Shown piece after piece: positions 1-28,301 of a DNA stretch of 64,000 nucleotides (within the stretch, counting starts at the first letter, position 1; each line of letters starts with the position of its first letter). The notes under the pieces were generated by a model, which saw nothing but the letters and a program-made list of their open reading frames with translations, was not told the DNA's origin and did no database searches. The translations under genes and the position numbers were made by a program. Source of the stretch: Acidimicrobiia bacterium (GTDB taxonomy: Bacteria; Actinomycetota; Acidimicrobiia; Spongiisociales; ZC4RG35); NCBI GenBank assembly GCA_965261135.1, contig OZ253443.1, forward strand, positions 2,300,391 to 2,364,390. The letters run 5' to 3'.

Positions 1-799
1 GCACCATCTCCGGCCCGTGGCGCCCCAGACAGAAGGCCTGCACATCCCGGGGTGACACCCCGGCCTCGCGGGCCAAGAAGTAGCGGAACCGACTGGAATC
101 GAGCGTCCCGGCCATCCCCAGCACCTGCTTACGCCCGAATCCCGAAGCAGAGAGCGCCTCGTGGGTCATCTCATCCAGCGGATTGGTCACCACCACAATC
201 ACTGCGTCGGGGGCATGAGCCGCCACCTCCTCGGCCACCGAGCGGACCACCCTCCCGTTGATGGCTATCAACCCAGCCCGGTCCATCCCCGGGGAGCGGG
301 GACGGCCGGCGGTGATCACCACCACCTCGGCGTCGGTGAGCAATCCTGCTTCCGATCCGCCCCGCACCGCGGTCGTGGAGCCGGTTATCCCCGAGGCATG
401 CTCCACATCGAGGGCCACCGAGGCTGCCAGTCCGGAAACCACGTCCACCATGGTGATCTCGGTGGCCATGTCGGCGGACGCCGCCAGGTGCGCCACCGTG
501 GTTCCGACGTTTCCTGCTCCCACCACCGCCAGACGGCCGAACCGGCGGGGATGCGTCCCCATCGGAGGATCGGGGGCCATCCAACGCGGGGCGCTGCGGT
601 ACAGCACCCGCCGGACGGCGGTGGCCGGGTCGGCGGCCCGAGGCTCGGGGACGGGAAGCGGACCCTCCACCAGTTCCAGGCCGAGCGCACCGATCACCTC
701 CCTGGCCTGGGGGGTTAGGATGTCTCCGGGGAGATAAACGATTTGACGGCGGCCCTTCGCCTTTTCCTCCCGGACCAGGGACTCGCCAATGACTCTCAT
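1..799 (-). CDS. Malate/lactate dehydrogenase family protein with an extra N-terminal domain of about 85 aa; partial, runs off the left edge; absent from the ORF track
   Basis: Manual translation from ATG at 799: MRVIGESLVREEKAKGRRQIVYLPGDILTPQAREVIGALGLELVE...LAVVGAGNVG...VITAGRPRSPGMDR...VVTNPLD...GMAGTLDSSRFR...LGRHG. These are the MDH/LDH Rossmann and catalytic motifs; the frame is open to position 2. Confidence 0.9.
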   Translation of the reverse strand, partial: MRVIGESLVREEKAKGRRQIVYLPGDILTPQAREVIGALGLELVEGPLPVPEPRAADPATAVRRVLYRSAPRWMAPDPPMGTHPRRFGRLAVVGAGNVGTTVAHLAASADMATEITMVDVVSGLAASVALDVEHASGITGSTTAVRGGSEAGLLTDAEVVVITAGRPRSPGMDRAGLIAINGRVVRSVAEEVAAHAPDAVIVVVTNPLDEMTHEALSASGFGRKQVLGMAGTLDSSRFRYFLAREAGVSPRDVQAFCLGRHGPEMV

Positions 800-807
800 G
801 GTTGCGG

Positions 808-1431
808 CTAGCGGCCCTCCACCGCCTCGACCGCCTCCACCGCCGCCTCCAAAGCGGTGGCCACGTTCTCCTCTGATCCGCTGATGAACAGCCTCCCATA
901 GCGCCCTACCGCTTGCACCTGGACCATGCTGATCAGGGCAGCCTTCTCCGCGGAATTGGCCCCAATGGCAATGTAGGCGGCCGGGGCGCATTCCACGATG
1001 CCCAGAGTCTCCCCCGGAACCACCAGGCTGCCCCGCCGCCATTTGTTGAGAAGCTGCGCCTGGTAGGGCTCCACCGAATTGATGCGCTGGATGCTCTCGA
1101 TTCTGGGCTTGATGCGGTCATAGAGGGACCTGCCCAGATGCTCCAGGATGGCCTCCCGGGCGACGGTTACTTCCGAGGGGATAGGCGAGCGGAGAATAAA
1201 GAACCCGAACTCCCGCTCCACGATCTGGGTGGTGGCCTCCACGGTGGCGGCCTTGAGGCCGATGTCCACCAGCCGGAACACCTCGTTTCCCGGCGCCAGC
1301 TCGGCCACCAGCACCGAGTCCCCGGCGAGGGGGATCGAACCCTGCACGGTGGCCCCGTTGTAGGCGGCGAACTTGGGCTGCAGGCCGTCCAGTTGGAAGA
1401 ACGCCCGGATGGTCAGGGAGTTTTCGGTCAT
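808..1431 (-). CDS. BMC tandem-domain shell protein (BMC-T, double-stacking CcmP/CsoS1D-like)
   Basis: LDGLQPKFAAY...ELAPGNEVFRLVDIGLKA...QIVEREFG and PGETLGIVECAPAAY...ANSAEKAA...GRYGRLFISG match the BMC-Tdp pattern; ATGA overlap with the aldehyde dehydrogenase stop. Confidence 0.9.
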   Translation of the reverse strand: MTENSLTIRAFFQLDGLQPKFAAYNGATVQGSIPLAGDSVLVAELAPGNEVFRLVDIGLKAATVEATTQIVEREFGFFILRSPIPSEVTVAREAILEHLGRSLYDRIKPRIESIQRINSVEPYQAQLLNKWRRGSLVVPGETLGIVECAPAAYIAIGANSAEKAALISMVQVQAVGRYGRLFISGSEENVATALEAAVEAVEAVEGR

Positions 1432-2813
1432 CCGGATCTGCCCAATTCATCCCACAGGTCGCGCCAGGGACGGTTCTGATAGGCGATCCGCTTGATGTTG
1501 ATCAGATGCAGGGCGGTGATGTTGTCCGAGGATATCGAGCCCGACCAGGTGCCGGTGCCCAGCATGAAGCTCGGCTCCAGGTCCACCGAATACCCCATTC
1601 CCCCATAGAGGCAGGGAGTGTTCACCAGTATGCGCCCGGCGGGCAGCTTTCCGAACTCCGCCACATCGTCGGGATCGTGGGAATGAACCGCCAGAGTGTG
1701 ACCGAGCCCGCCGAAGTTGAGCACCTCTTCGCAACGCCGGTAGCCGGCCGCCCGATCGGCCGCCTCATAGAAGGCCAGCACCGGATTGAGCTTCTCGTGG
1801 GATAGGGGATGCTCTCGGCCGACCGCCTCCAGTTCGGCCAGGAGCACCCGGGTTCGGGGCGGAGTGTCGAAGCCGGCCAACTCGGCCAGTCGGACGGCCG
1901 ACTGGCCCACGGTAGAGGGGATGATGCTTCCGCGCTGTCCGAAGATCACTTTGCCCAGCCGCTCCGCCTCCCTCGGGGTGCAGAAATAGCCACCGGCCAG
2001 ACGCAGTTCGTTGCGCAGGGCCCGGGATATGTCCCGATGAGCGACTATCGCCTGCTCGGCAACGCAGGCGGTGCCGTAGTCGAAAGACTTGGAGTTAATG
2101 ATCTGCTCGGCCACCTCGTCCAACTCGTTGACCATGGAGGGGCCCACATAGACAGGGACGTTGCCCGGCCCCACCGCCAGGGTGGGCTTTCCCGAGGAGT
2201 AGGCGGCTCTCACCATGGCGGTGCCCCCTGTGGCCATCACCACCGAGGTCTGCCTATGGCGCATCAACTCCCCGCTTCCCTCCAGGGTCACCTCGGAGAG
2301 ACAACCGATCAAACCCTTGGGCGCCCCGGCCGCCTCGGCCGCCTCGGCCATGATGCGAGCAGTCTCCGCGCAGCACCGCACGGCGCGGGGATGGGGGGAG
2401 CACACCACCGCATTGCCGGATTTGACCGCCGAGAGCACCTTGAAAATCACCGTCGAAGTGGGGTTGGTGACCGGAATCAGAGCGGCCACCACTCCCATCG
2501 GCTCGCCCACCGCCATTACCTTGGTGGTTTGGTCATGCCACAGCACCCCCACACACCGGACATTGCGCAGCCATTCCCACACCCCCAGGGCATTGAAAAG
2601 GTTCTTGTACATCTTGTCCTCGGCGTTTCCGTACTGGGTCTCGATGGCGGCCATCTCCCCCAGACGGCCGCATTCGGGCTCGATGGCCACCACCATCGCC
2701 TCCACTATCCGGTCGATGGTCTCCTGGGAGGCGCCCCGGAATTTCTCGAAGGCGGCCCGGGCGGCGGTCACCGCCTGACGAGCCTGGGAGATGCTGCGAA
2801 GATCCGCGTCCAT
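1428..2813 (-). CDS. CoA-acylating aldehyde dehydrogenase (EutE/PduP/AdhE N-domain family)
   Basis: IPVTNPTST, SPHPRA, ATGGTAMVRAAYSSGKP, GPGNVP, SKSFDYGTACVAEQ (catalytic Cys), EKLNPVL, GTGTWSGSISSDN. Confidence 0.93.
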   Translation of the reverse strand: MDADLRSISQARQAVTAARAAFEKFRGASQETIDRIVEAMVVAIEPECGRLGEMAAIETQYGNAEDKMYKNLFNALGVWEWLRNVRCVGVLWHDQTTKVMAVGEPMGVVAALIPVTNPTSTVIFKVLSAVKSGNAVVCSPHPRAVRCCAETARIMAEAAEAAGAPKGLIGCLSEVTLEGSGELMRHRQTSVVMATGGTAMVRAAYSSGKPTLAVGPGNVPVYVGPSMVNELDEVAEQIINSKSFDYGTACVAEQAIVAHRDISRALRNELRLAGGYFCTPREAERLGKVIFGQRGSIIPSTVGQSAVRLAELAGFDTPPRTRVLLAELEAVGREHPLSHEKLNPVLAFYEAADRAAGYRRCEEVLNFGGLGHTLAVHSHDPDDVAEFGKLPAGRILVNTPCLYGGMGYSVDLEPSFMLGTGTWSGSISSDNITALHLINIKRIAYQNRPWRDLWDELGRSG

Positions 2814-2816
2814 GAC

Positions 2817-3947
2817 CTATCCTGCCCTTCCCACCGCCCGACGCACCGCGTCGAGATCGGCGTCTGCCCATCCCAGAGCCTCCAGGCGACGGCCCTCCGC
2901 CCACAGGTCGCGCCCGCACATGGCCGACACCACCGTCACCACCGATGAGGTAACCGGGACCGCAACCGAGGCCAAGGCCGCGGCCGAGCAGAGAGCCACC
3001 AGCGAGCCGGCCGTCCCATCCAACACCGAACAGGAGAGCCCTTCCCCATCGGACCTCGACGCCAAATCATCGACGGGAGCAAGGGGGGCGCGCACACCCC
3101 AGCGGGCGGCCACCGCCGCTCTTTCTTCCCCAAGCGCCTCCAAGAGGGATTCCATCTGCGGAGAGGGAACCGCCGGGTGGGGAAGGGGAGTGGCGCCGGG
3201 CAGTAGTTCTCTGGGCGTTTGGCGGGTGATGGGACCGTCCAGTATCCCCGCGGGGACCACCGACCAGGAACTCTCCGTGAGACTGGTGTGCAGCACGGTC
3301 GGCAACAGTTTCATGGCCGGGAAGTAGGCGGCCAAAGACTCCCTTACGCTTTGACCCCGATCGGCCGGGTAGGCGGCCAGGGCTGCGTCGGGAGTGGATT
3401 CTGCCCATTGCAACCGTCCGGTTCCCGCGGCCGCCACCGAAAAGGGGCAAGCCTGTAACTCGATCAGGGTTATCCCCTCAGATGTCCCGCCCGCCCGGAG
3501 CCACCAGGCCATCTCCAAGGCGCCGAAAGTTCGACCCGGTGAGATCGCCACCGTCTGTCCCTCGTCCAGCAACCCCGCCAAACGCATTCCCACCGCCCGT
3601 TGGTCGGTGAGTGATCCCACCACTACTACCAGATCCGCGCCCGCCACGGCTTGGTCGATCCAGGGAACGGGGCGGATGGCGTGCTCGGCGTCGGGGTCCA
3701 CCCGGTAGTTTCCCACCGGACCCCCACCGCGTACCGAAATGCCGGAGGCGGCCACCCGGGCGGCCTCTTCCCCTCTGGCCACCCACCAGCGAACCTGGGC
3801 GCCCCCGGCCAAGAATCCGGCTGCAAAAGCCCACGCCTGAGGACCTGATCCCAACACCGTCACCTCGCCCCAATGGGGGGCGGGAACCTGATGTTGGGAA
3901 GTAGCTTCGCTCAGGGCGGCGACGACTGCCTCGAAGTCAGACAACAC
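2817..3947 (-). CDS. NAD/NADP octopine/nopaline (opine) dehydrogenase-like protein, divergent
   Basis: N-terminal Rossmann VLGSGPQA, ISPGRTFGALE, and C-terminal PVTSSVVTVVSAMCGRDLWAEGRRLEALG typical of the family; located inside the BMC operon. Confidence 0.7.
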   Translation of the reverse strand: MLSDFEAVVAALSEATSQHQVPAPHWGEVTVLGSGPQAWAFAAGFLAGGAQVRWWVARGEEAARVAASGISVRGGGPVGNYRVDPDAEHAIRPVPWIDQAVAGADLVVVVGSLTDQRAVGMRLAGLLDEGQTVAISPGRTFGALEMAWWLRAGGTSEGITLIELQACPFSVAAAGTGRLQWAESTPDAALAAYPADRGQSVRESLAAYFPAMKLLPTVLHTSLTESSWSVVPAGILDGPITRQTPRELLPGATPLPHPAVPSPQMESLLEALGEERAAVAARWGVRAPLAPVDDLASRSDGEGLSCSVLDGTAGSLVALCSAAALASVAVPVTSSVVTVVSAMCGRDLWAEGRRLEALGWADADLDAVRRAVGRAG

Positions 3948-3964
3948 TCAATGCCGATTGCGGT

Positions 3965-4249
3965 CTAGGACCTTCCGCCGAGTTGTGGGAGCATTTCGAG
4001 CCCGGCATCGGGGCGGGCGATGACATGCACCGAGACCACCTCGCCTACCTTGTTGGCGGCGACGGCGCCTGCGTCGGTGGCGGCTTTGACGGCGCCCACT
4101 TCTCCTCGAACGAAGACCGATACCAGGCCTCCTCCGATTTTTTCCATCGCCACCAAATCAACGTTGGCGGACTTCAACATGGCGTCAGCCGCTTCCATCG
4201 AGGCAACCATACCCCGTGTCTCGACCATGCCTAAAGCAATTTTGTCCAA
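3965..4249 (-). CDS. BMC hexamer shell protein (BMC-H, EutM/PduA-like)
   Basis: ALGMVETRG...[12 protein letters not shown]...[14 protein letters not shown]...VHVIARP. Confidence 0.97.
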
Positions 4250-4313
4250 GTCTCTCTCCTTAGTGTTCGGCTGTTGGCAGGACCACTGCGGATCCCGGTT
4301 TCGGTCTTTTCAT

Positions 4314-4574
4314 TTACTTGGGAATCTGTACCTCGTCAACGATCAACACTGCCGCCGCATCGGTGGGAAGGCCCCGGAGGGAGACGGCCTGTCGGGCCGC
4401 CGAGCCCTCGACCACGAGGACCAGTTCTCCGACCCCCGCTCCCACCGCGTCGGACACCACCGTCTGCGTCCCGCTTTCGTCACCGACCTGGGTAACCACC
4501 AGCAGGGTCACTCCCTGCAGCCCGGGATCCTTGATGGTCCCGGTTACCTTGCCCTTGACCCTGCAAAGGCGCAT
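4314..4574 (-). CDS. BMC pentamer vertex protein (BMC-P, EutN/CcmL family)
   Basis: MRLCRVKGKVTGTIKD...DAVGAGVGELVLVVEGSAAR...PTDAAAVLIVD. Confidence 0.95.
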   Translation of the reverse strand: MRLCRVKGKVTGTIKDPGLQGVTLLVVTQVGDESGTQTVVSDAVGAGVGELVLVVEGSAARQAVSLRGLPTDAAAVLIVDEVQIPK

Positions 4575-4577
4575 ATC

Positions 4578-5888
4578 TCAGATAGCTTCCAGGTAACGGT
4601 CCCGCTCAAGCTGGGTTACCGTGTCGCGCCAACCCTCGGGGTCGGATTCCACCATGAAGTTGTGCTCCCGCTCGGCCTGCTGGGCCAAGGTGATGCGCAG
4701 CGGCTCGGAAAGAACCTCTGCGATCAACTCGGATTTACCGAACAGCTCCAAGGCGGTGGGGATATCGGTGGGAAGCGGCTGGTGGCGGGCAGCCGAATAA
4801 CCGTCGCTGAGCTCTTTTTCGGTGGGTTGGGCGCCGGTGGTTATCCCCTTCAGGCCGGCGGCGAGTTGCACGGCGGTCAGCAGATAGGGGTTGGCGTCCG
4901 AGGACCCGTCCCGCTGCTCAATGCGCACCGCATTCTCGCTCCCCTCGATCACCCTCAGCCCCACCGTCCGGTTGTCCCCACCCCAGGCGTTGCTGGTGGG
5001 ACAGAAGGTGTATCCCTGGCGACGTTTCATGGAGTTGGGGGTGGGCGCGGAAATCAGCGCGGTCTCCGCCATGTGCTGCTGCAGACCTCCCAGATAGGAG
5101 AGCCCCAGCGCCGAGAGTCGACCCCCGTCGGAAAAGGCATTCCTTCCGTCCCTCCACAACGACTGGTGGAGATGAAAACTGTTGCCGGACTCCTCGAAAA
5201 ACGGCTTGGCCATGAAGGAAGCCAGCATCCCGTGGTTGTAGGCGATCTCTTTGACGGCGTTGCGGAACAGCATGGCGTTGTCGGCCGAGACAAGGGCCTC
5301 TCTGTAGCGGAGATTGATCTCGATCTGCCCGGGAGCATATTCGGGGTTGGACATCTCCACCTGGATGCCCATTTCGCTGCAGAGATTGCGGATCGGCCCC
5401 ACCACATGCTCGAACATCGACCCCCGCGCCAGCCCGTAGACCGAGATTCCCGAATCCACCAACTCCTTGGTCTCCAGGTCGAGCAGGTAGAACTCGAACT
5501 CCACCCCGGTCATGACCTCGTAGCCCAACTCGGCGGCCTCGGCGAGCTGCTCCACCAACACGTTGCGGGGATCACAGCACACCGGACTGCCGTCCATCTC
5601 CTCGGCCCGCCCCAACACCAGCACCACCCCTTCTTCCCAGGGGACCGGCCTCATGGTCTCGAGCATGGGGATGACGTGGAAATCGGCGTAGCCGTTGGCG
5701 AAATTGGCATAGGGGGTGTCCCAGATGTCGTTGGTCATGTCCATCTGGAAGATGGCATTACACATGCCCACCCCGTGCAGAAACTCATCCCACACCCCAG
5801 CCTGAACCCGCTTGCCTCGGGCGATGCCATTCAGGTCTCCCAGAGCCAAAACCACCGTGTGAGTGCCTTCCGGCAACGATCGCGACAC
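4578..5888 (-). CDS. Glutamine-synthetase-like protein (probable gamma-glutamyl-amine ligase)
   Basis: DLNGIARGK, GVEFEFYL, EYAPGQIEINL, FMAKPF...SGNSFHLHQSLW, WGGDNRT, RIEQRDGSSDANPYL. Confidence 0.88.
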   Translation of the reverse strand: MSRSLPEGTHTVVLALGDLNGIARGKRVQAGVWDEFLHGVGMCNAIFQMDMTNDIWDTPYANFANGYADFHVIPMLETMRPVPWEEGVVLVLGRAEEMDGSPVCCDPRNVLVEQLAEAAELGYEVMTGVEFEFYLLDLETKELVDSGISVYGLARGSMFEHVVGPIRNLCSEMGIQVEMSNPEYAPGQIEINLRYREALVSADNAMLFRNAVKEIAYNHGMLASFMAKPFFEESGNSFHLHQSLWRDGRNAFSDGGRLSALGLSYLGGLQQHMAETALISAPTPNSMKRRQGYTFCPTSNAWGGDNRTVGLRVIEGSENAVRIEQRDGSSDANPYLLTAVQLAAGLKGITTGAQPTEKELSDGYSAARHQPLPTDIPTALELFGKSELIAEVLSEPLRITLAQQAEREHNFMVESDPEGWRDTVTQLERDRYLEAI

Positions 5889-6019
5889 GCAATGCTCCTC
5901 TCTCTACCGTCTTTGGTCTTTCAGTCTGTTTTAGTGCTTTCTACCTGTTATCCCAAGCAGGACGGCCGGTATACCATCATAGTGGAAGATACCTCAACCA
6001 GAGGCTGGAGAAACGGCTT

Positions 6020-7162
6020 TTGAGCAGACCCCTCGAAGCGGTAGTGGTGGGCGCCGGGATCGCCGGCGCCATGACCGCCCTGTACCTGCGCCGGGCCGGG
6101 CTCTCGGTGAAGTTGGTCGACGCCTGGGACCCGGGTCACGCCCGAGCCGCCTCCGCCGGCACCCATCGCCTGATCCGCTCCACGCACGGAACCGATGAGC
6201 TCTATACCTTGTGGAGCCGGGAGGCCCGCTTGCGGTGGATGGAGATGTCCCGGGAGATGGGGCAACGTTTCTACTACGAGTCGGGCGTGGTGATCCTGGC
6301 CGCGGAGGGCCACTCCGAATGGGAGGACGCCACCCAGATCACTCTTTCCCGGCTGGGGATACCCTTTTTTGTCGTTCCCCCCGGCGAACTCCCCATTCGG
6401 CTGCCGGTGGTGAACCCCCAGGGGATCGCCTACGGACTGTGGGAGCCCGAGGCCGGCTTCATATTATCCAAGGATGCGCTGGTGGCGACGGTGGCGCTGT
6501 TCCGCTCCGAGGGAGGAGAGGTGATCAGGGCCAGGGTGGAGACCGACGAGAACGAACGTCCGCTTCTCGGTGGAAAGCCCATCCGGTCCGATCTGGTGGT
6601 AATGGCCTGCGGGGCGTGGATGGGCGGACTCTTTCCCCGCACCCTGGGCAGGCTCTTGGACATTGTCCGCCAGGATGTGATCCTGGTCTCCCCGTCCGCC
6701 GGGGATACCCGCTATGACTGGGAGCACATGCCGGGTTGGATCGATCACGGCTATCCCGCCTATGGCGTTCCTGCCGTCGGTGGCCACGGGTTCAAGGCTG
6801 CTTTTGCCTGGCATCACGGTGCGATGGACATCGACCGATCCGACCGGGTGACCGACCCCTCGACAGTGGCGCGCTGTCGACGCTATCTGGCCACCCGCTT
6901 TCCGGATCTGGCCGACTCGGTGATCACCGATCAGAAGGTGTGCCAAATCGTCAATACCCCCGACCGCCACTTCATCATCGACCGTCACCCCAACCACGAG
7001 AACATAGTGCTGGTGACGGGAGGATCGGGACATCTCTACAAGCACGGGCCGGTGGTGGGCGAATATGTGACGGGCTTCGCCCTGGGCCGGCACGGAACGG
7101 ACCGACGCTTCCGACTGGACCATCCCCGCAACACCGCCTCCCCCGCCGATGACCCTCAGTAG
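6020..7162 (+). CDS. FAD-dependent oxidoreductase, monomeric sarcosine oxidase / N-methyltryptophan oxidase family
   Basis: VVVGAGIAG Rossmann motif, ASAGTHRLIR, TPDRHFIIDRHP, TGGSGHLYKHGPVVG. Confidence 0.85.
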   Translation: MSRPLEAVVVGAGIAGAMTALYLRRAGLSVKLVDAWDPGHARAASAGTHRLIRSTHGTDELYTLWSREARLRWMEMSREMGQRFYYESGVVILAAEGHSEWEDATQITLSRLGIPFFVVPPGELPIRLPVVNPQGIAYGLWEPEAGFILSKDALVATVALFRSEGGEVIRARVETDENERPLLGGKPIRSDLVVMACGAWMGGLFPRTLGRLLDIVRQDVILVSPSAGDTRYDWEHMPGWIDHGYPAYGVPAVGGHGFKAAFAWHHGAMDIDRSDRVTDPSTVARCRRYLATRFPDLADSVITDQKVCQIVNTPDRHFIIDRHPNHENIVLVTGGSGHLYKHGPVVGEYVTGFALGRHGTDRRFRLDHPRNTASPADDPQ

Positions 7163-8992: not shown

Positions 8993-11203
8993 TCAACCTG
9001 CCGTGGTTGTCGTGGTGTCGTCGGGCGTCTCTGTCTCTTCCGGATCGGTGGTCTCTGTTCCCTCCGGAGCGGTGGTCTCGGTTGTCGTGGTGATCTCGGG
9101 GCCTTCGGAGACCACCACCACCACCTGGCTGCCCTCCTCCACTTCCTCACCCGCCCCCGGCTCGGTCCTGATCACTCCACCCACCACGACCGTATCGGAA
9201 GCCTCGACCACCTCCACCCAATCCAAGCCCAGATCCGCCAAGACCGAGAGCGCCTCACTGCTGGGCAACCCCACCACATCCGGCACCACCGGCAACGCGA
9301 CGCCACTCGAGATCACCACCACCACCTGCTCGACAGCGGCAATACCCCCACCTGCGCCCGGCTCGGTCCTGATCACATGGCCCACCGCGACCGTATCGGA
9401 AGCCTCGGTCGTCTCGGCCCACCTCAGACCCGACTGCGCCAGAACCGAGAGCGCCTCACTACTTGACAGCCCCACCACGTCAGGAATCACCAGCAGTTCC
9501 GGGCCCTCGGAGATCACCACCACCACCTGCTCGATAGCGGTAATACCCCCTCCTGCGCCCGGCTCGGTCCTGATCACATGGCCCGCCGCGACCGTATCGG
9601 AAATCTCGGTCGTCTCGGCCCACCTGAGACCCGACTGCGCCAGAACCGAGAGCGCCTCGCTGCCGGGCAGCCCCGCCAAATCGGGGACCACCAGCAATCC
9701 GGGGCCGGTCGCCACCATCAGATCGATCGGGGTTCCTGCTGGCAAAAGCGGCCCCGGCAGGGGATCCTGGTCGATGACCGTCCCCACCTGGAAACCGCTG
9801 TCCTCGACGAATTCGATCTGACCCACCGTGAATGCCTGGGCCAGGATGAGGTTCTCAGCCGTGCCCTGGGTTTGGCCGATCACCAAGGGAACGCCAAACT
9901 TCTCCAGCCCGCTGGAGACCACCACTTCCACCTCGGTGCGAGACTCCACCCGCTCCCCCGCCGCGGGATTGGTGGCGATCACCCTTCCTTCGGGCATCTC
10001 CTGGCTGTTCCGGCGGACGACCCGAACGATCAGCCCCGATTCCTGTATGGAGGAAAAGGCGTCGGTCTCCCATCTTCCCACCACATCGGGGATGGCGACC
10101 ACCACCGCGTCCGGTGTCGGCTCGGGCGCCTGGAGCAGGGACCAGACCACCCAACTCAAACCGGCCAAGGCGGCCAGAAGCACCAATACCCCCACTACGA
10201 AGGGCAGGGGCACCGAACGGCGCTCCTGCATGTGCGGGTAGTAGCTCTGGGGAATTACCCTCCCTCCCCTCCGAGCCCCGCTCCCGCCCACTCGAGACAC
10301 GGCAATGGGCTGGCGCACCATCACCTGCTCCTGTTTCGGAGTCACCGATGGTTGAGAAGGCGCGCCGGTGGGAATCCTCTCTCCCCTCAGCCATGCCTCC
10401 AAATCCCGGAGGAGCGACTCCGTATCCTGGTAGCGGCTATCGGGGTCCTTGGCAAGGGCCCGCAGCACGATGGTGTCCAGTTCGGGAGGGATCTCGCGGT
10501 TCTGGGAGGAAGGAGGAGGGACTTCTGTGGAGACATGCTGATAGGCGACGGCCATGGGAGTCTCGCCCTGAAAAGGAGGTCGGCCCACCAACATCTCGTA
10601 AAGAACCACCCCCAACGAGTAGATGTCGGAGCGTCGATCGGCAGAGCGACCTTGAGCCTGTTCAGGACTGAAGTAGGTGGCGGTCCCGATGATCGAGCCG
10701 GTCTGAGTCAAGTCGGTAGAGTGAATCCATGCCCGGGCGATCCCGAAGTCGGCCACCTTCACCGTCCCGTCGGTGGTGAGCATGATGTTTCCCGGTTTCA
10801 CATCCCGGTGGATCACCCCCAAACGGTGCGCGGTGGCCAGGGCCAGGACCACTTGGCGGGCTATCTCCACCGCCCGCCGGGGAGAAAGAGGTCTTCCCTC
10901 GCGGATGAGATCGCTCAGACAGTCCCCCTCCACCAGTTCCATCACCATGTAATACGACCCTTCCGCCTCTCCCCAGTCGTAAATGCCCACGATGTTGGGA
11001 TGGTTCAGATTGGCGGCGGATTGAGCTTCGCGGCGAAATCGTCGCACGAAGGATGCGTCTTCGCTGTGCGATTTGGGAAGAATTTTGACAGCCACCCGTC
11101 TGCCCAGGGCAACATCCACCGCCAGGTAGACGTCCGACATGCCCCCTTTGGCCAGATGGCTCACTAATCGGTAACGATCAGCCAGGGTGTAGGGGAGTTC
11201 CAT
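8993..11203 (-). CDS. pknB: Ser/Thr protein kinase PknB with a TM segment and five PASTA domains
   Basis: LAKGGMSDVY, VAVKIL, HRDVKPGNIM, VKVADFGIAR, GTATYFSPEQ, SDIYSLG; TM segment; five [IV]P[DL][VL][VIA]G PASTA starts. Confidence 0.95.
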   Translation of the reverse strand: MELPYTLADRYRLVSHLAKGGMSDVYLAVDVALGRRVAVKILPKSHSEDASFVRRFRREAQSAANLNHPNIVGIYDWGEAEGSYYMVMELVEGDCLSDLIREGRPLSPRRAVEIARQVVLALATAHRLGVIHRDVKPGNIMLTTDGTVKVADFGIARAWIHSTDLTQTGSIIGTATYFSPEQAQGRSADRRSDIYSLGVVLYEMLVGRPPFQGETPMAVAYQHVSTEVPPPSSQNREIPPELDTIVLRALAKDPDSRYQDTESLLRDLEAWLRGERIPTGAPSQPSVTPKQEQVMVRQPIAVSRVGGSGARRGGRVIPQSYYPHMQERRSVPLPFVVGVLVLLAALAGLSWVVWSLLQAPEPTPDAVVVAIPDVVGRWETDAFSSIQESGLIVRVVRRNSQEMPEGRVIATNPAAGERVESRTEVEVVVSSGLEKFGVPLVIGQTQGTAENLILAQAFTVGQIEFVEDSGFQVGTVIDQDPLPGPLLPAGTPIDLMVATGPGLLVVPDLAGLPGSEALSVLAQSGLRWAETTEISDTVAAGHVIRTEPGAGGGITAIEQVVVVISEGPELLVIPDVVGLSSSEALSVLAQSGLRWAETTEASDTVAVGHVIRTEPGAGGGIAAVEQVVVVISSGVALPVVPDVVGLPSSEALSVLADLGLDWVEVVEASDTVVVGGVIRTEPGAGEEVEEGSQVVVVVSEGPEITTTTETTAPEGTETTDPEETETPDDTTTTTAG
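9110..9710. repeat. Three near-identical 201-bp tandem units encoding PASTA domains 3-5
   Basis: CTCGGTCCTGATCAC recurs at 9161, 9362 and 9563, an exact 201-bp period. Confidence 0.9.
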
Positions 11204-19225: not shown

Positions 19226-22200
19226 CTAGCGGAACCCCATTGCGCAGATAATTGTCGGTTCGGCATGTGTGGTTGTTTGTGGGGGGATGCAGAGCATGCC
19301 GTCTCGCCAAAGGCTTACCACAAGGGCAGCGAGGTCTTTTGGAGAGCGGTCCTTGACGGCTTTAGCCAGTGTCTGTGTGGCGGACTCGCGTAGTGGTCGT
19401 TCATTTATGGCGTCGTGGGCGTTTCGGAGATCGGCCAGGGTGAACAGGAGATTGTCCTCGAAGGTGTCCATGTGGGCATGCAACTCTTGCCATACCCTGC
19501 CACGGACGCCTTGTAATGCGCCGGTGGCTTGGCCTCGTGGAGTACGAAGCGGCCCTTCGAAGGCTGCTGCTGTCAGTTCGTAGTGATCCTTGAGCCGTGG
19601 TAGGGGTGGGGTGGACGGGTCGCACGCCGCGAGAGTTAGTGCTTCTTGGGCTGTCATGCGTCTCTGTTCACCGTCGGGACTCACGAACGCGAACGCGTCG
19701 GAGCCGGTCACTGTTTGGGAATGTACAAGCACACCGCTCCAGTCGCTTCGATCCGGGCTTTGCCGTGTTGAGTGAACAACGTTGGGAAGGGTGCTCGCCC
19801 GTTTTGCAAGTTCAGGGTGCCGCTCTTGGGCTTGGCGCCAGATTTCATATGCCATGGAAACGGGATCGACATCGTCAACGCCGTCTTTGAGCATGTAGTT
19901 AGACGATTCGTCGTAGAGCCCGCAGATGATCTCTCCCTCGCGTTCGTCACCAAAGAACTTCTCGTCGGAACCGAGAAGTTCGGCGTTTTCGACCAAACGT
20001 TCGCGTATGCGCTTCCGGAGGGTGATTACGCCTTCGAGGGTGTTGGACGGCATTAGAGAGTAGAGCAACACTTCGGACGAGGTTTGACCGATGCGGTCCA
20101 CCCGTCCAGCGCGTTGGATGAGTTTCACCAGAGCCCAAGGAAGGTCATAGTTGACGACAATGTGAGCGTCTTGGAGGTTCTGGCCTTCAGAAAGCACATC
20201 GGTGGATACCAGCACTCTCAGTTCGCCGCCGAGGTCCTCCGGCCGTGACCGGTTGGAGACAGGCGAGAAGCGGTGGGCTGTTCTTGTTGGGTTTTCGGAG
20301 TTTCCGGTGACCAACGCCACACCTTCGACACCGCGGCGGCGCAGTTCCTCGGTCACGTATCTGGCGGTGTCTGCGGCTTCGGTGAACACCAGCACCTTTT
20401 CATTGGCGTGCTGCTGGGCGACGAGTTCCTCCAGAGCGTTCAATTTGCCGTCCGTTTCGGGTGTCCAAGTTCCGAAGTTGTCTAGCATCTGGTCGATCAG
20501 ATCCGTGTCGTGCAGCAGGCGTTGTCGGAATTTACTTACGAAAGCGCCGACGGGGGCCCAACGGACGTTCTTGGGTTTGGTGGCTTCGAGACGAGCGTAG
20601 GCTTGTTCTGGGCTGATACCTTCCCGCTTTACTAGTGTCCCTTCGTCGTCCGTGTCGTCTCCGTCGATGTCGGTTTCCACCGGCCACAGTGCGTTGCTGA
20701 CCGAGCCGACCGGTACTGGCAGGTTGTTATCGAGAGCGTGGGACGCAACCAGGTTGCGCAGTCGGTGACGGCGAAGCGTCGCCAGGAACGCAGGCCCGGA
20801 CGACGAGAGCCGTTTGAACATCATGATCCGGTTGAATCCAGAGAGATCCCCGTGGGCTGCTTCCCGAAGGTCTGCCAAGAGTTTTGCCTCGTCGGGTGTG
20901 GCCGGCTGATAGCGGGAGTTCAGGTAGGTTCCCACCTTTGATCGAGGCAGTTTCAGATCTTTAATGGCGTCGAGGGTTGTGCCAGAAGTCATGGGCTTGG
21001 CGGGGTCGCTCTCTGCCATTTCCCGTTCGACCGGCACTGGGATCCGCTTAGGGAAGTAGAACACTGTACCGTCGCCGAAACGCAGGTACTTGCGGCTCTC
21101 GCTGTCGGTGTCTGCGTAGTTGTCTTCCACGAAACGCCGGGTCCGTCTGATCAGGTAGTGAGACATCAGCCTTTGCCAGTCTTCCAAGTGCGCGGACCGT
21201 TTGAACGCGGCCAAGGTCGATGTGCGGCCACGGCAGGCCCGTTCGAAGTCGAGGTCTCCTGCTTCTGCGATGGCCTGCTCGGGCCGGATCCCCAAATCGG
21301 TGTCATTGTCGAGGAACAGCGACAACTGCGCCGCCAGATCGGAGAGGTCCTTGTTGTAGGGGGTGGCTGTCAGTAGTAGAACTTTCGAGTCGTTGTCGGA
21401 AATATATGCTTTCAGCGCCCGATGATCGCGGCGTTTCTCGTTGCGGAGGTTGTGAGCCTCGTCTATGATGACCAGGCGGTGCCGCCGCTCCTCGGGTAGC
21501 AACTTGTGGACCATCGACAGCGACATCACCTCGCCTCGCACCTCGTAGTCATGGAGGTAGCCATCCCACATGTTCTTAAGGTTCTTGGGGCACACCACCA
21601 GCGTTTCATAGCCGTTTTCTTCTTGGAGCAGCCGCGCTACTGCTGTTCCGATCAGTGTCTTCCCCAGCCCTACCACGTCGCCGATCATGGCCCCGTTCTT
21701 CTGAGTGACGATCCTCGCTGCTATCTTCACCGCGGCTGCTTGGAACTCCAACAGTTCCTGCTGCATCGACGCTGGCAATCCGTAACTGATCAGGCCCTCC
21801 CGCGCCTCTTTTGACAGGTGGTAGGCCATTTTCAAATACACGAGATAGGGATCGAGAAGATGCCCTGAGGCCCAGGACTCGTCCAGCACCTCAACAAGGT
21901 GCGGCATCACCTCAAGAGACAGCCGATCATCCCAGCGATCGTTGAACCAGCGAGCGAGCTTCCTGGTTGCGTCAACATCCAGCATGTCCACATTCAACTC
22001 GCCCTGGGTTCGCAACCCAGAATGGGTGAGGTTCGACGAGCCAACATAGGCAACCCGCGGAGCAGCGGTGTCGTCGCGGTGACACAGATACAACTTGGCA
22101 TGCAACCGATGGGCGGTATGCAACTTCACAGCCACATCGCCATCGCTGATCTGGCGGCGCAGAGTCTGCAGGCCCGCTTCGTCGCCGACCACCGGCAAAC

Positions 22201-22519
22201 CAGCCTCTAATTGCTTTCCGAACTCTTTCACGATCTCCGCTCTGTGCTGGACAGCGGTCTTTTGGTCCACCTGGTCGAGTTGCCTTCCCCAAGCCAGTCG
22301 GCGCATCTCGTCCTGAGGTGTCTCCGCCATCCCGACCAGCACCCGCACTTTCGGTTCGCCGTCAGGCGTGTCGGGCAAAAGGTCCACCGCATCGGCTATG
22401 AGATTCCATCCCCTCAGATTGAAATACCCAACAGCCACATCAAGCGTCCGTGACGATGCCAGAGTGGTCAGGAGCGCGTCCTCAACCCTCTCATCGATGT
22501 TGTCCAAAACCAGAGGCAT
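19226..22519 (-). CDS. PLD-nuclease-domain / SNF2-like helicase fusion
   Basis: LHAKLY...YVGSSNLT (HKD-like), DVVGLGKT, IIDEAHN, LLTATP, STDVLSEGQNLQ, VNYDLPW, QRAGRVDRIGQ. Confidence 0.88.
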   Translation of the reverse strand: MPLVLDNIDERVEDALLTTLASSRTLDVAVGYFNLRGWNLIADAVDLLPDTPDGEPKVRVLVGMAETPQDEMRRLAWGRQLDQVDQKTAVQHRAEIVKEFGKQLEAGLPVVGDEAGLQTLRRQISDGDVAVKLHTAHRLHAKLYLCHRDDTAAPRVAYVGSSNLTHSGLRTQGELNVDMLDVDATRKLARWFNDRWDDRLSLEVMPHLVEVLDESWASGHLLDPYLVYLKMAYHLSKEAREGLISYGLPASMQQELLEFQAAAVKIAARIVTQKNGAMIGDVVGLGKTLIGTAVARLLQEENGYETLVVCPKNLKNMWDGYLHDYEVRGEVMSLSMVHKLLPEERRHRLVIIDEAHNLRNEKRRDHRALKAYISDNDSKVLLLTATPYNKDLSDLAAQLSLFLDNDTDLGIRPEQAIAEAGDLDFERACRGRTSTLAAFKRSAHLEDWQRLMSHYLIRRTRRFVEDNYADTDSESRKYLRFGDGTVFYFPKRIPVPVEREMAESDPAKPMTSGTTLDAIKDLKLPRSKVGTYLNSRYQPATPDEAKLLADLREAAHGDLSGFNRIMMFKRLSSSGPAFLATLRRHRLRNLVASHALDNNLPVPVGSVSNALWPVETDIDGDDTDDEGTLVKREGISPEQAYARLEATKPKNVRWAPVGAFVSKFRQRLLHDTDLIDQMLDNFGTWTPETDGKLNALEELVAQQHANEKVLVFTEAADTARYVTEELRRRGVEGVALVTGNSENPTRTAHRFSPVSNRSRPEDLGGELRVLVSTDVLSEGQNLQDAHIVVNYDLPWALVKLIQRAGRVDRIGQTSSEVLLYSLMPSNTLEGVITLRKRIRERLVENAELLGSDEKFFGDEREGEIICGLYDESSNYMLKDGVDDVDPVSMAYEIWRQAQERHPELAKRASTLPNVVHSTRQSPDRSDWSGVLVHSQTVTGSDAFAFVSPDGEQRRMTAQEALTLAACDPSTPPLPRLKDHYELTAAAFEGPLRTPRGQATGALQGVRGRVWQELHAHMDTFEDNLLFTLADLRNAHDAINERPLRESATQTLAKAVKDRSPKDLAALVVSLWRDGMLCIPPQTTTHAEPTIICAMGFR

Positions 22520-22524
22520 GACCG

Positions 22525-25500
22525 CTAGCCCTCGTTCCCGAAGACCATACGATCACGCAGATTCCCCGCCGCCTCGTAGGCATCCTCAACACCCCACAAC
22601 TCCGCCAGCAACAAATCAGCTTCGTTGGTAATGTCACGACACTTGGACAAGTCATAATTCCCCACTATGAGCTTGTTATAAAGCGTCTCTGTGGGATGAT
22701 TCGGAAGTTCTTCTCTAAGTTTGATGGCGAGGCTGGCGAGGCTTCTCCGTCTTATCTGGAATCCCATGTTATCCAACGAGGTATAGGCCAAGCGTTCGAT
22801 GTCGCCTGGAAAGGAGGCCAGTGTACCTCGGTTGACATGGAAAGAATCCCCTAACATCAACCACCAAACACTTCCCCACCTTCCAGCCAACACCAAGAAC
22901 GCCAGATCCCGATGTCGCTCATCCTCAAAACTAAACCAATGCGTCTTAGAGCGAGATGCGACAACCTCCATGGTGGAGGAATCTATCGTGATGGGCTCCT
23001 CCACAAAGAGGCTAGGGGAGTAACTGCAAACCGATTTGAATCCCAACTTGTAACACCCCTTGGCATCTAGCAGGCTCGTGATCGGTTGCTGGCGTTTCAG
23101 CATGTCAACAAAAGCATTTGATAGCTTCCGAGATTTGAGGAAGGGCCATTGATGAAAACGGTCAGCGATTTCGGTTTCGAGGTGGATATATCTTATTTCT
23201 GAGAATAAGGTAGGTCGCTTCTCCGTTCTCCACCGATGACACAAGGTCGTATGCAATCCTCGATGCTGTTGGCCTCCTGAAACCAGAATTGAGTTTCGCA
23301 CATCCGCGGCAAAAAGGCTACTGGGTCGGCTGGCATACGAAGATATCCAAAGCGTCGGGAAGCGGCTGGATAGGTGCCGTCGCAATGGTTGAAAGTCGCG
23401 GCTGAAACACAGGTTGTGCATGACGATCATCGCCATCCGCCCTTGGTCGTTCAACAGCCTCGAGGCTCTCTCGACGCATGCCGCATACAGATCCGGGCAA
23501 TTCTGGGTCTTGTAACCCCGCCATTGGTAACCGAGTTTCTTCCATTGCCTTTTGGAGATGTAGGGAGGATTGCCGATGATCACATCGAAGCCTCCAGTCC
23601 CGTCTTGCCACACCTCGGGGAACTCCGCGAACCAGTGAAACGGGCTATGCGTTTCTTTCCAATCCTCAAAAGACAGAGAAGTGCTGTGCAGTTCATGAAG
23701 GGCTGGGTCTACAACTCTGCGGGCTTCCTCGAACCTGGCAACCAGCAGTTGGCGGGCATCCTCGTCCTGCCAGGCGCGGCCAGCGGTCGCCTGGGCGGAA
23801 GTGAACTCCCGGTATGCCTCTCCGGCACGTTTGGCCGCTTCGGTTGCTTTGGCGATTGCTGGGAAAGGAAGACCGCCGCCGGTGATACGGTCAGCGTCGG
23901 CGGTGTTTGCCAGACCGACCAGGAGGTTTCCTGCTTTGATGTTGAAATCCAAGTCGGGCAGCGGTTCCACCTCGGAAATATCGCTGATCTGAGCAACCAG
24001 TTTCAAGAACAGTCGCAGTTTGGCGATCTCAACAGCTTCCGGCATCAGGTCAACACCGAACAGGTTGTGCAGGCAGATGGTTTTGAGTAGCCAATAGCGT
24101 TCACCTCTATGCTGCCGGGCCTCGCTTAGAAACGATGCGGTGCCGCCCCCTCTGGCTTCGATCTCCGTAGCCCGGTACACAAGCGTCGTATACATCGGTT
24201 CGAGAACATCGATCGCAGCGAACAAAAATGCTCCGGAACCGACTGTGGGATCGCACACTGTCAGGGACCGCAACACTCCGAACGCCGTCTCGCATTCCTG
24301 CAGGGAAACCAACTGGGTCAGGTAGTCATGGATCAGCGTTTCCATGTCAAGGTTCTCGGTTACCGCGTCGTCAATGCTCCAAACCCGGGTCGGGTCGGCC
24401 AATTTCTTCCGCAAGGCGGCAACCCTTTCTCGGCGGTGAGTGATATCGCACCAGCGTTCGCCTGCCAAACCGACATCCAGAGTCGGGTCGGGTGTCTCTG
24501 ACGAGGGCCGTTCCTCTGGGGGCGGTAGGTCCTTGTCGGTTCCGTAAGTCTGGCTGTCATGTATGTATTCATCGTCAGAGTTGGACAGGAGAATGCAGGG
24601 GTCGTCCAACCCCGCGGCTACGAGTCGGTCCACCACCGCTGGAATGATCGCGGTCGCCGCCATGTAGCCGGTCACATCCGGTTTGGTGTAGTAGGCGCCT
24701 TGTTGCTTCTGGTTGACATACTGCTCGAAAATGAACCCGAGGATGTCAGGGTTGATGTCCTTGCCATCGTCATCGTCGAGATCGGGGCGCTCGTCCAGAT
24801 GCCACCGCCACTTGTCGAAGAACACAAAGATATCCTCAAAAGCCTCGTCCTTGATGTTGATGAGGTGGTTGGTTTCGAGTTGGTGCGGCAGGAATATCCC
24901 ACCGTTCACATAGGGAACCGTGCCGATGATCCGTCCAATGTCTGGGTCGCCGTATGCGACTGGAGGGGGCTGCCCCAAACCCTGGTGGAACAAGGGCAAC
25001 AGGAACTCGCGGAAGAACGCGTAGAACTGGTCGTGCCCGAAGTGCTCCCGAACCATGTTGAGCCTGTTGCTCAAATAATGGCCGTCGCCGTCGAGGAAGC
25101 CCTTCTGTTGGATGAAGTAGATGAACATGAGCCGGTTGAGTAACACCGATGCGTACCAGCTCCGTTTCTCGTCGTCTAAGGTCCCCTCGATGTGGTTGAC
25201 GAACACTTTCCGGTGACGATTGAAGGCTGTGTAGAAGGCCTTGGTGACCTTCGCGGCGTTGAACGAGCGCCGTACCCGCTCCAGTACCACCGAGGCGGTT
25301 AGATGTTCCTCTTCGTCGACGCTGAAAGAAGCCTTCCGCAGGCGCTGCATCAGGGCATGGCCGGGTTCACCCCTTCGGTGCTCGTGGTCCACCGGTCGAT
25401 ACCTGACAGCACCTAGCGGTTGCTCAGGCCACAGCCATCTCTGCGCCCCTTCGTTATCGACGAAGATCGTCAACTGGTCTCGGCAACGGCGGCGCAGTTC

Positions 25501-25737
25501 ACGCACCACCCTGTGCTGTTCCGGCCTGTCGGGGAGACCGGTAGGGCATCTCACCTCCCAGGCCGTCACGCCCCGCTTGTCGGCCACCGCCCGGGCGGTC
25601 ATGGAGGTGTCTGGCACCTGAACCTCACGCGACTGGTAGTACGGAGGTGGATTGTCCCACCCCATACTGCGGAACAAACCACTCAGATCGGCACCGTCCA
25701 ACAGGCGTTTGAGCTGCTTGTCAACTCCAACGGCCAT
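22525..25737 (-). CDS. Large N6-adenine DNA methyltransferase (Eco57I / type IIG-like)
   Basis: GAYYTKPDV, VCDPTVGSGAFL (motif I), FGVDL, IKAGNLL, FDVIIGNPPY (motif IV). Confidence 0.9.
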   Translation of the reverse strand: MAVGVDKQLKRLLDGADLSGLFRSMGWDNPPPYYQSREVQVPDTSMTARAVADKRGVTAWEVRCPTGLPDRPEQHRVVRELRRRCRDQLTIFVDNEGAQRWLWPEQPLGAVRYRPVDHEHRRGEPGHALMQRLRKASFSVDEEEHLTASVVLERVRRSFNAAKVTKAFYTAFNRHRKVFVNHIEGTLDDEKRSWYASVLLNRLMFIYFIQQKGFLDGDGHYLSNRLNMVREHFGHDQFYAFFREFLLPLFHQGLGQPPPVAYGDPDIGRIIGTVPYVNGGIFLPHQLETNHLINIKDEAFEDIFVFFDKWRWHLDERPDLDDDDGKDINPDILGFIFEQYVNQKQQGAYYTKPDVTGYMAATAIIPAVVDRLVAAGLDDPCILLSNSDDEYIHDSQTYGTDKDLPPPEERPSSETPDPTLDVGLAGERWCDITHRRERVAALRKKLADPTRVWSIDDAVTENLDMETLIHDYLTQLVSLQECETAFGVLRSLTVCDPTVGSGAFLFAAIDVLEPMYTTLVYRATEIEARGGGTASFLSEARQHRGERYWLLKTICLHNLFGVDLMPEAVEIAKLRLFLKLVAQISDISEVEPLPDLDFNIKAGNLLVGLANTADADRITGGGLPFPAIAKATEAAKRAGEAYREFTSAQATAGRAWQDEDARQLLVARFEEARRVVDPALHELHSTSLSFEDWKETHSPFHWFAEFPEVWQDGTGGFDVIIGNPPYISKRQWKKLGYQWRGYKTQNCPDLYAACVERASRLLNDQGRMAMIVMHNLCFSRDFQPLRRHLSSRFPTLWISSYASRPSSLFAADVRNSILVSGGQQHRGLHTTLCHRWRTEKRPTLFSEIRYIHLETEIADRFHQWPFLKSRKLSNAFVDMLKRQQPITSLLDAKGCYKLGFKSVCSYSPSLFVEEPITIDSSTMEVVASRSKTHWFSFEDERHRDLAFLVLAGRWGSVWWLMLGDSFHVNRGTLASFPGDIERLAYTSLDNMGFQIRRRSLASLAIKLREELPNHPTETLYNKLIVGNYDLSKCRDITNEADLLLAELWGVEDAYEAAGNLRDRMVFGNEG

Positions 25738-27107: not shown

Positions 27108-27161
27108 AAGGCATTGGACGGCCTGCCGAGACCAGCGGTTCCACAGGGAAGGATTCTGAGG

Positions 27162-28082: not shown

Positions 28083-28301
28083 GGAATGAACTCAAAGTGG
28101 CTCATAGGACATTAGTTGGGGAGTGACGGTGGATTCAACGACCCAATGAACCCCGCCCTTCCCGAAAGCATGGCACCACCAGTCCTCAGGCCGCCCTTTG
28201 TTCCGTAACATCCAGTTCAAGTTCTCAATGTGGCTGCGGACCCTCGTCACAGGCGACAACCAGCCACTCCGAAGCCAGGGAGACAGACACGGAGATCAGC
28301 G

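Follow-up and report, generated by a model that had tools for sequence, protein, structure and literature searches.

A stretch of 64,000 nucleotides from an Acidimicrobiia bacterium (GenBank assembly GCA_965261135.1, contig OZ253443.1, positions 2,300,391 to 2,364,390; referred to here as the window) encodes, at its left end, a bacterial microcompartment (BMC) that is very probably a metabolosome of type MIC2. The locus is a new Acidimicrobiia member of this catalogued but uncharacterized type, which was described by Sutter et al. 2021 (Nat Commun, Supplementary Data 2, PMC8217296) from 22 loci, with a range of Proteobacteria plus two Actinobacteria and with its function unknown. From the residues and neighbors of the encoded enzymes we tentatively propose, at slightly under even probability, that MIC2 is a five-step amine-degrading metabolosome, a compartmentalized paralogue of the N-methylglutamate (NMG) pathway whose shell would hold in a toxic aldehyde.

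Seven genes are tightly packed on the minus strand of the window between positions 1 and 5888 and are transcribed from 5888 toward 1. The intergenic gaps along the operon are 3, 64, 17, 3, -4, and 8 nt, which fits co-transcription. Together with the divergent oxidase gene, the locus comprises the following features.

4578-5888, minus strand: first operon gene, predicted glutamine synthetase (GS)-like glutamate-amine ligase, 436 aa (Gln-synt_C, E 3.6e-82)
4314-4574, minus strand: BMC-P pentamer (vertex), 86 aa (EutN_CcmL, E 2.6e-23)
3965-4249, minus strand: BMC-H hexamer, 94 aa, TTG start (BMC domain at residues 5-80, E 5.2e-27)
2817-3947, minus strand: opine-dehydrogenase-fold protein (ODH-like), 376 aa (profile against PDB 1BG6, E 3.8e-33)
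1428-2813, minus strand: coenzyme A (CoA)-acylating aldehyde dehydrogenase (AldDH) of the AdhE/acetaldehyde-dehydrogenase type, 461 aa (Aldedh; TIGR02518, E 3.6e-149)
808-1431, minus strand: BMC-Tdp, CcmP/CsoS1D-like tandem-domain trimer, 207 aa (NCBIfam CcmP, E 3.4e-59; PF27545 CsoS1D_N plus a BMC domain)
1-799, minus strand: malate dehydrogenase (MDH)-like enzyme of the lactate/malate dehydrogenase (LDH/MDH) family, first 266 of 397 aa, cut at the window edge (Ldh_1_N, E 1.2e-32)
5889-6019: control region separating the operon from the divergent oxidase gene (motif conserved among Acidimicrobiia and the Shine-Dalgarno (SD) sequence of the ligase gene)
6020-7162, plus strand: monomeric-sarcosine-oxidase (MSOX)-like FAD oxidase, divergent, 380 aa (DAO family, E 7.4e-41)

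The catalogue lists for MIC2 an AldDH, an LDH/MDH of pfam02866 whose BMC-specific N-terminal extension is ~70 aa long, a pfam00120 glutamine synthetase, and a protein of the 6PGDH-like superfamily with a short helical N-terminal extension, and it counts MIC2 among the types without an obvious aldehyde-generating enzyme (PMC8217296). In the window, an acylating pfam00171 AldDH lies in the shell operon (1428-2813) and a pfam00120 gene is part of the locus (4578-5888). The pfam02866 protein carries an extension of 88 aa before its Rossmann fold, as it does in 32 of 32 loci, and the 6PGDH-like protein corresponds to the ODH-like protein, in which a helix at residues 4-13 and a linker precede an opine-dehydrogenase fold. 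Since every item of the published description is present and the order of the eight genes is kept across phyla, the locus was assigned to MIC2, by comparison with the written description in the catalogue only.

The shell is minimal, and no further shell genes were found in the 64-kb window beyond a single BMC-H, a single BMC-P, and a single BMC-Tdp gene. The BMC-Tdp protein is 66-75% identical to its proteobacterial MIC2 homologues. An AAGGAG SD sequence upstream of the BMC-H TTG start at 4249 gives the full 94-aa protein; in the public gene call (81 aa, ATG at 4210), the BMC domain loses its first strand.

An initial annotation of the stretch had recognized a metabolosome with BMC-H, BMC-P, BMC-Tdp, and an acylating AldDH, and family matches bear out one member of each shell class. 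The co-transcribed GS-like ligase, opine-dehydrogenase homologue, and MDH-like protein that it named are all present on the minus strand at the places given. Its span of 1-5888 is correct for the seven genes and leaves out the conserved divergent oxidase at 6020-7162. The enzyme set that it called unfamiliar had already been catalogued, as a type that is still uncharacterized (PMC8217296). It was right to separate the locus from the EUT, PDU, GRM, PVM, RMM, and SPU types, whose signature enzymes were not found: the operon, the 8.5-kb downstream flank, and the upstream genes contain no EutBC, diol dehydratase, glycyl-radical enzyme, class II aldolase, DeoC/RpiB, or aminotransferase plus kinase. 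Since MIC2 is catalogued but uncharacterized, there is also no match to an already characterized BMC type, the outcome that the annotation had named as refuting it.

One genome per GTDB species was scanned with the ODH-like family, yielding 36 true loci, 8 of them in Acidimicrobiia metagenome-assembled genomes (MAGs; the closest, 93% identical, fixes the taxon of the window) and 28 in Proteobacteria. The latter belong to Rhodobacterales (Paracoccaceae and Rhodobacteraceae, with Amylibacter), Hyphomicrobiales, Granulosicoccaceae, and SUP05 Ca. Thioglobus, and Aliishimia ponticola MYP11 is the sole surveyed record not labelled a MAG. The gene order (oxidase, divergent from ligase-P-H-ODH-AldDH-T-MDH) is invariant, and every gene is present wherever it could be scored in Acidimicrobiia, Alpha-, and Gammaproteobacteria. 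The lines below give the loci with the gene out of the scorable loci and the median identity between the window protein and its proteobacterial homologues.

Oxidase: 33/33; 44%
Ligase: 34/34; 52%
BMC-P: 34/34; 47%
BMC-H: 34/34; 72%
ODH-like protein: 36/36 (the search query itself); 36%
AldDH: 34/34; 64%
BMC-T: 33/33; 72%
MDH-like protein: 32/32; 53%

Conserved enzymes of the MIC2 locus

The GS-like ligase shares ~30% identity with E. coli PuuA (E 7e-48) and 30-32% with GmaS of Methylobacterium sp. DM1. It falls under the cut-off of every NCBIfam equivalog, including the GlnA- and PuuA-type models, and reaches 220.6 of the 469.6 bits required by TIGR03105 (GmaS-type). When aligned with GlnA and PuuA of E. 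coli, 34 of 34 MIC2 sequences keep the catalytic residues E129, E131, E212, E220, H269, H271, R321, R339, R344, E357, and R359. In the ammonium site of these 34 sequences, the Asp50' loop is deleted, Y179 is replaced by Val (by Phe in one), and E327 of the flap is replaced by Phe. Judged by its residues, the protein is an amine ligase and not a glutamine synthetase, since those for metal, ATP, and glutamate are kept and the ammonium site is lost. Changes of such kinds in the ammonium site have been reported for GmaS (PMC7948447), and the alignment reveals the same kinds in PuuA. The gamma-glutamylation of an amine that was suggested in the initial annotation thus gains support, at the level of conserved residues.

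The product of the divergent gene belongs to the MSOX family (1ZOV, E 2e-33). The MSOX residues R49, R52, K265, and K348 are invariant in all 32 of the oxidase sequences that cover these positions, and Cys315, the covalent-FAD residue, is present in the window oxidase and in 15 sequences in all. The invariance of the carboxylate-binding R52 and K348 and of K265 at the O2 site points to an N-substituted alpha-amino acid as the substrate. This putative oxidase is the best candidate for producing the aldehyde. A PuuB-type oxidase was ruled out by the lack of a BLAST match to E. coli PuuB. The protein has no terminal extension or encapsulation peptide. A DAO-type oxidase is not listed for MIC2 in the catalogue, where the DAO model is tied to MIC6 (PMC8217296).

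The 376-aa ODH-like protein has no match in Pfam or NCBIfam. Its distant relatives carry PF02317, and one of them has been named opine dehydrogenase by JGI. A profile of the family matches CENDH (PDB 1BG6) over its full length with an E-value of 3.8e-33. This structure is also the best Foldseek match (TM 0.74/0.79) of an AlphaFold2 model (pLDDT 73.9, pTM 0.76), and octopine, yersinopine, and pseudopaline dehydrogenases are the next. The protein therefore has its fold, full-length homology, and Rossmann motif (GxGxxG/A) in common with CENDH and octopine dehydrogenase (3C7A), but differs from opine dehydrogenases in the catalytic site. The opine-dehydrogenase triad (His202, Arg292, and Asp297 in CENDH) is not kept in the whole MIC2 clade. 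Canonical relatives have the motifs N.GA..HP and RY..ED.P..LVP, whereas here the catalytic His is replaced by Val in Acidimicrobiia or by Glu/Asp in Proteobacteria and RY..ED is absent. In addition, the clade has invariant residues of its own (R73, D98, R286, and R369), an insertion of 8 residues that contains an invariant Arg-Gly, and a helix of the targeting type at its N-terminus. The protein is probably ligand-binding and possibly catalytic, with a predicted chemistry unlike that of opine dehydrogenases.

The N-terminal helix of the ODH-like protein is amphipathic and conserved at residues 3-13 (window 3909-3941), reading xSDFEAVVAAL here and xxEFxxFxxA in Proteobacteria. The model places a helix at residues 4-13 and a disordered linker after it. 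An amphipathic helix with a linker is the usual form of an encapsulation peptide, and the modeled N-terminus looks like one.

The AldDH is closest to the acetaldehyde-dehydrogenase family, matching the acetylating acetaldehyde dehydrogenase 5J78 with 420 bits, Listeria 3K9D with 390 bits, and PduP-type enzymes with only ~150 bits, which suggests that it handles a C1-C3 aldehyde. The catalytic Cys lies within FDYGTACVAEQ. All MIC2 AldDHs have a tail, NRPWRD[I/L][Y/W][E/D]E[Y/F]G (window 1428-1470), past the region aligned with PDB structures. This tail could be a short targeting or interaction peptide; no encapsulation peptide has been reported on the MIC2 AldDH in the catalogue (PMC8217296).

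The MDH-like gene, cut at the window edge, was completed by an exact-protein look-up that recovered the flank on a 2.3-Mb ENA metagenome contig (L001), in which 12 of 12,813 positions differ from the window. The full-length protein (397 aa) passes the cut-off of an MDH subfamily (NF004863, 325.6 against 283 bits) and has Chloroflexus MDH 1UXI as its best PDB match (255 bits); residues of the Arg102 specificity type and the catalytic Arg, Asp, and His are present. Its N-terminal extension spans 88 aa (window 536-799), of which residues 2-46 (window 662-796) align with EutQ 3-48. A hidden Markov model (HMM) of the extension matched E. coli EutQ residues 3-48 with 22.6 bits (E 1.4e-5), the sole match among 3662 control sequences, a set made up of the E. 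coli eut region in six frames, the entire window, and 2000 shuffles (best shuffle 10.6 bits). The H1/H2 region of EutQ binds the Eut shell in Salmonella, where the N-terminal 99 residues suffice for targeting (PMC12487888). The catalogue calls the MIC2 extension "EutQ/cupin-like" (PMC8217296). We rejected cupin homology, as Pfam returned nothing even at E 10 and the likeness is to the EutQ N-terminus only. Given the match to the H1/H2 region and the lack of a cupin in Pfam, the extension is better read as a putative shell-binding module than as a cupin.

A candidate amine-degrading pathway

Accessory genes were found by clustering the open reading frames in the flanks of the proteobacterial loci. 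Upstream of the oxidase are genes for GntR, a class II amidotransferase (MgsA'), a GXGXG protein (MgsB'), an FMN glutamate-synthase-domain protein (MgsC'), and a class I amidotransferase-like protein (GATase1), and this set directly adjoins the oxidase gene in 13 of 28 loci. A gene for RidA, of the imine hydrolase family, directly follows the MDH-like gene in at least 19 proteobacterial loci; it encodes a single domain, and in a Hyphomicrobiales locus (L025, 14382-15611) its position is taken by a triple fusion, a 409-aa protein with three RidA (L-PSP) domains. A Liv-type ABC transporter also occurs near proteobacterial MIC2 loci.

The proteins of the mgsA-glxC-mgsC-glnT (mgsA-mgsB-mgsC-gmaS) cluster of Methylobacterium sp. 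DM1 are 32, 33, 56, and 30-32% identical to their MIC2-linked counterparts. Because of these identities and the shared gene order, the MIC2 ligase and the neighboring synthase genes are, on sequence grounds, an old paralogue of the NMG module. Relatives of MgsC' with at least 85% identity are found in many Alpha- and Gammaproteobacteria. Among five sampled carriers, the gene adjoins MIC2 in three (Hoeflea alexandrii, a Nitratireductor MAG, and an Ectothiorhodospiraceae MAG), MIC2 lies elsewhere on the same chromosome in one, and the contig ends first in the last. A JGI name on a close homologue (P0192/P0199) equates the MIC2-linked Mgs genes with the canonical methylamine genes. This was rejected, since the canonical plasmid-borne MgsC proteins are only 52-56% identical to MgsC'.

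In Falsiphaeobacter marinintestinus (L048, 364-6572), the GntR-MgsA'B'C'-GATase1 genes adjoin a Liv-type ABC transporter and N,N-dimethylformamidase-like genes (DMF_alpha and DMFA2_C). This context hints that the paralogous synthase handles amines freed from substituted amides.

In the proposed pathway, the GS-like ligase would convert a small primary amine and ATP to a gamma-glutamyl amide in the cytosol (step 1), a chemistry read from its residues. The amide would then be turned into an N-alkyl-alpha-amino acid, most likely an N-alkyl-glutamate, by MgsA'B'C' in many Proteobacteria (step 2). Oxidation of the C-N bond would release an aldehyde and an amino acid (step 3), for which the MSOX-like protein is the obvious candidate catalyst, presumably helped by RidA. 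The ODH-like protein, with its encapsulation-type helix, may be an NAD-linked lumen enzyme for the C-N oxidation, beside the oxidase or in its place, or else a cargo adaptor. In the lumen, the AldDH would convert the aldehyde to acyl-CoA with production of NADH (step 4). The MDH-like enzyme, presumably anchored to the shell by its EutQ-like module, may regenerate NAD+ by reducing oxaloacetate to malate (step 5), replacing the alcohol dehydrogenase of classical metabolosomes. No phosphotransacylase (PTAC) is encoded, which would require passage of CoA and acyl-CoA through the shell, perhaps via the gated BMC-Tdp. A monomeric MSOX-type enzyme has no folate-binding subunit and releases free aldehyde, which would be a reason for having both a shell and an acylating AldDH.

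It is possible, though rather doubtful, that MIC2, as the first case among metabolosomes, obtains its aldehyde by the oxidative cleavage of the C-N bond in an N-alkyl amino acid and is a shell-enclosed NMG paralogue in which NAD+ is regenerated by an oxaloacetate/malate shuttle through an enzyme tethered by a EutQ-type module. The literature searched contained no paper that joins microcompartments with N-methylglutamate, opine dehydrogenase, sarcosine oxidase, or methylamine, and no later characterization of MIC2; a match to "MIC2" in PMC8153426 is a DOI string only. The more specific case, in which the amine is methylamine and the organelle sequesters formaldehyde as formyl-CoA, is improbable.

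Several points weigh against the proposed pathway. No Mgs, RidA, GATase1, or Liv genes are present in the window or in the Acidimicrobiia flanks, which leaves step 2 unsupported for the organism of the window. The oxidase lacks a recognizable targeting signal, and a cytosolic location would mean that the aldehyde arises outside the shell. In the ODH-like protein, the canonical catalytic triad is missing, and its median identity between phyla (36%) is the lowest of all core proteins. Both of these proteins have been given step 3, and the chemistry may be partly misread.

The ligase, with 30% identity to E. coli PuuA (E 7e-48) and ammonium-site changes in common with it, would also suit a Puu-like route. 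A di- or polyamine or an amino alcohol would be gamma-glutamylated, its distal end would become a sequestered gamma-glutamyl-aminoaldehyde that is then oxidized, and a GATase1-type hydrolase would remove the glutamate. The class I amidotransferase-like gene of the proteobacterial loci, which gives a faint PuuD/Peptidase_C26 signal, fits this last step. However, the oxidase has no detectable similarity to PuuB and keeps the MSOX residues that bind the alpha-carboxylate, and the AldDH is of the acylating acetaldehyde-dehydrogenase type and not PuuC-like. The Mgs' module and RidA would have no role, and gamma-glutamylated aldehydes are not volatile, so that a shell would be of little benefit to them. 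We therefore consider this route unlikely. Catabolism of an opine-type secondary amine dicarboxylate (an N-carboxyalkyl amino acid) seems improbable as well. The ODH-like protein and the oxidase would cleave the amine, and the resulting 2-oxo acid or glyoxylate would be reduced by the MDH-like enzyme and acylated by the AldDH. Both cleaving proteins come from families that act on N-substituted amino acids, and an LDH/MDH-family enzyme is a natural partner of a 2-oxo-acid product. Yet the His/Arg/Asp triad is lost in the ODH-like clade, the AldDH resembles acetaldehyde dehydrogenases and not known glyoxylate enzymes, and the ATP-dependent amine ligase and the Mgs' module would be left without a role.

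A third alternative comes from the genes beyond the left edge of the window. The initial annotation had the operon continuing past this edge and allowed for a canonical signature enzyme just outside it. The operon does continue, with the rest of the MDH-like gene and then two further genes. The missing part is the downstream end, and the recovered flank holds no such enzyme.

L001, 18 nt after the MDH-like gene: HpaE-like NAD-type aldehyde dehydrogenase, 491 aa (TIGR02299, 482 bits)
L001, overlapping the HpaE-like gene by 8 nt: HpaD-like LigB-family extradiol dioxygenase, 291 aa (HpaD model, 139 bits; PDB 8IQ8, E 8e-25)

The pair spans L001 13227-15570 and is followed by a convergent ilvC. In Acidimicrobiia, an arylethylamine such as tyramine or dopamine might be converted to an aldehyde and then an acid, after which the HpaE-like and HpaD-like proteins would open the ring. 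The tight spacing of the two genes behind the MDH-like gene and the retention of the pair in 7 of the 8 other Acidimicrobiia loci favor such an aromatic route. On the other hand, the pair is confined to Acidimicrobiia, being absent from L009 and from 28 of 28 proteobacterial loci, and it lies 0.35-3 kb away from the operon in L004, L007, and L008. Neither protein has an extension. Moreover, the 64% identity of the AldDH between phyla suggests that it handles one and the same small aldehyde everywhere. An aromatic route is thus very unlikely.

The compartmentalized NMG paralogue, by comparison, offers a testable pathway for MIC2, names a candidate signature enzyme, and would explain the extension of the MDH-like protein by a module with experimentally shown shell binding. 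It would tie a widespread amine route to organelles in Acidimicrobiia, Rhodobacterales, Hyphomicrobiales, and SUP05-type Gammaproteobacteria. If true, it widens compartmentalized chemistry to the oxidative deamination of secondary amines and to an alternative form of cofactor recycling. The records of Hoeflea alexandrii and Aliishimia ponticola are not labelled MAGs, so these carriers are probably cultured and experiments are feasible.

Control region and other features of the window

The ligase gene begins with a GTG start preceded by the SD sequence AGAGAGGAG, which is invariant in 8 aligned Acidimicrobiia loci. The divergent region of these loci is otherwise variable, except for a nearly invariant motif, TCCACTAT[G/C]ATGGTA (operon strand, 5971-5986), which may be a -10-like element or an operator. 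A scan for sigma-70 promoters and terminators gave no promoters, and terminators at chance level. No regulator gene adjoins the locus in the lineage of the window.

A PknB-type Ser/Thr kinase gene (8993-11203) lies in the usual pknB-pbpA-rodA neighborhood and adjoins dnaB. Its PASTA region has three nearly identical repeats (...SEALSVLAQSGLRWAETTE.SDTVA.GHVIRTEPGAGGGI...), suggesting a recent internal duplication. Further along, a defence island occupies 19226-35900. It includes an HKD-Snf2 helicase (19226-22519) and a type IIG restriction-modification enzyme (22525-25737; PADLOC E 6e-161) as well as, at 31437-34865, a Hachiman HamB-like helicase, directly upstream of which an unannotated 344-aa gene could be HamA.

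Comparison with known microcompartments and the NMG pathway

The locus shares with published MIC2 the minimal shell (one BMC-H together with one BMC-P and one BMC-Tdp) and the absence of a PTAC and an alcohol dehydrogenase. We found no conflict with the published type, and the host falls within its known actinobacterial range. The divergent MSOX-like oxidase, the Mgs', RidA, and ABC transporter accessory genes, and the reading of the extension as a EutQ N-terminus are additions to its description, and the Acidimicrobiia form also carries the downstream HpaE/HpaD-like pair. According to the catalogue, the AldDH of MIC2 is nearest to that of MIC1 and then to that of RMM1, and an LDH/MDH with an extension of this kind also occurs in MIC1 (PMC8217296). 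RMM1/AAUM and MIC1 are, like MIC2, amine-related or uncharacterized metabolosomes with an incomplete core. In contrast to RMM1, there is no class III aminotransferase or phospholyase, kinase, or short-chain dehydrogenase here, and the Zn-ADH, phosphatase, and MreB-like gene of MIC1 are missing.

The HpaE/HpaD-like pair recalls the core of the ARO microcompartment, although its tie to the organelle is only putative. An ARO type was suspected from LigB and Aldedh in the flank and rejected on shell composition and gene content. Both systems have an actinobacterial host and a LigB-family dioxygenase and semialdehyde dehydrogenase beside shell genes. However, ARO has two BMC-H, an IclR regulator, and, upstream of the shell genes, two LigB subunits, but neither a BMC-T nor an acylating AldDH (Doron et al. 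2023), whereas the locus in the window has one BMC-H, a BMC-Tdp, a single downstream HpaD-like LigB, an acylating AldDH, and no IclR. With EutQ, the MDH-like extension has the H1/H2 region in common; the module is here fused to a dehydrogenase and lacks the cupin domain. In EutQ, H3/H4 bind cargo peptides.

The canonical NMG pathway (gmaS, mgsABC, and mgdABCD) proceeds from GmaS through NMG synthase to NMG dehydrogenase and passes the C1 unit to tetrahydrofolate (PMC7948447). No GmaS orthologue (TIGR03105 at cut-off) was found among the MIC2 genes. The window and the Acidimicrobiia flanks contain neither mgsABC nor mgdABCD, and the proteobacterial loci have Mgs' with a monomeric oxidase. Both systems employ a GS-like amine ligase and, after it, a synthase of three subunits, have the gene order A-B-C-ligase, and use a flavoenzyme of the sarcosine-oxidase family for the last step. 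The MIC2 genes differ in being paralogues, not orthologues, in having a monomeric MSOX-like oxidase in place of the four-subunit MgdABCD, and in their linkage to a shell, to an acylating AldDH, and to an MDH.

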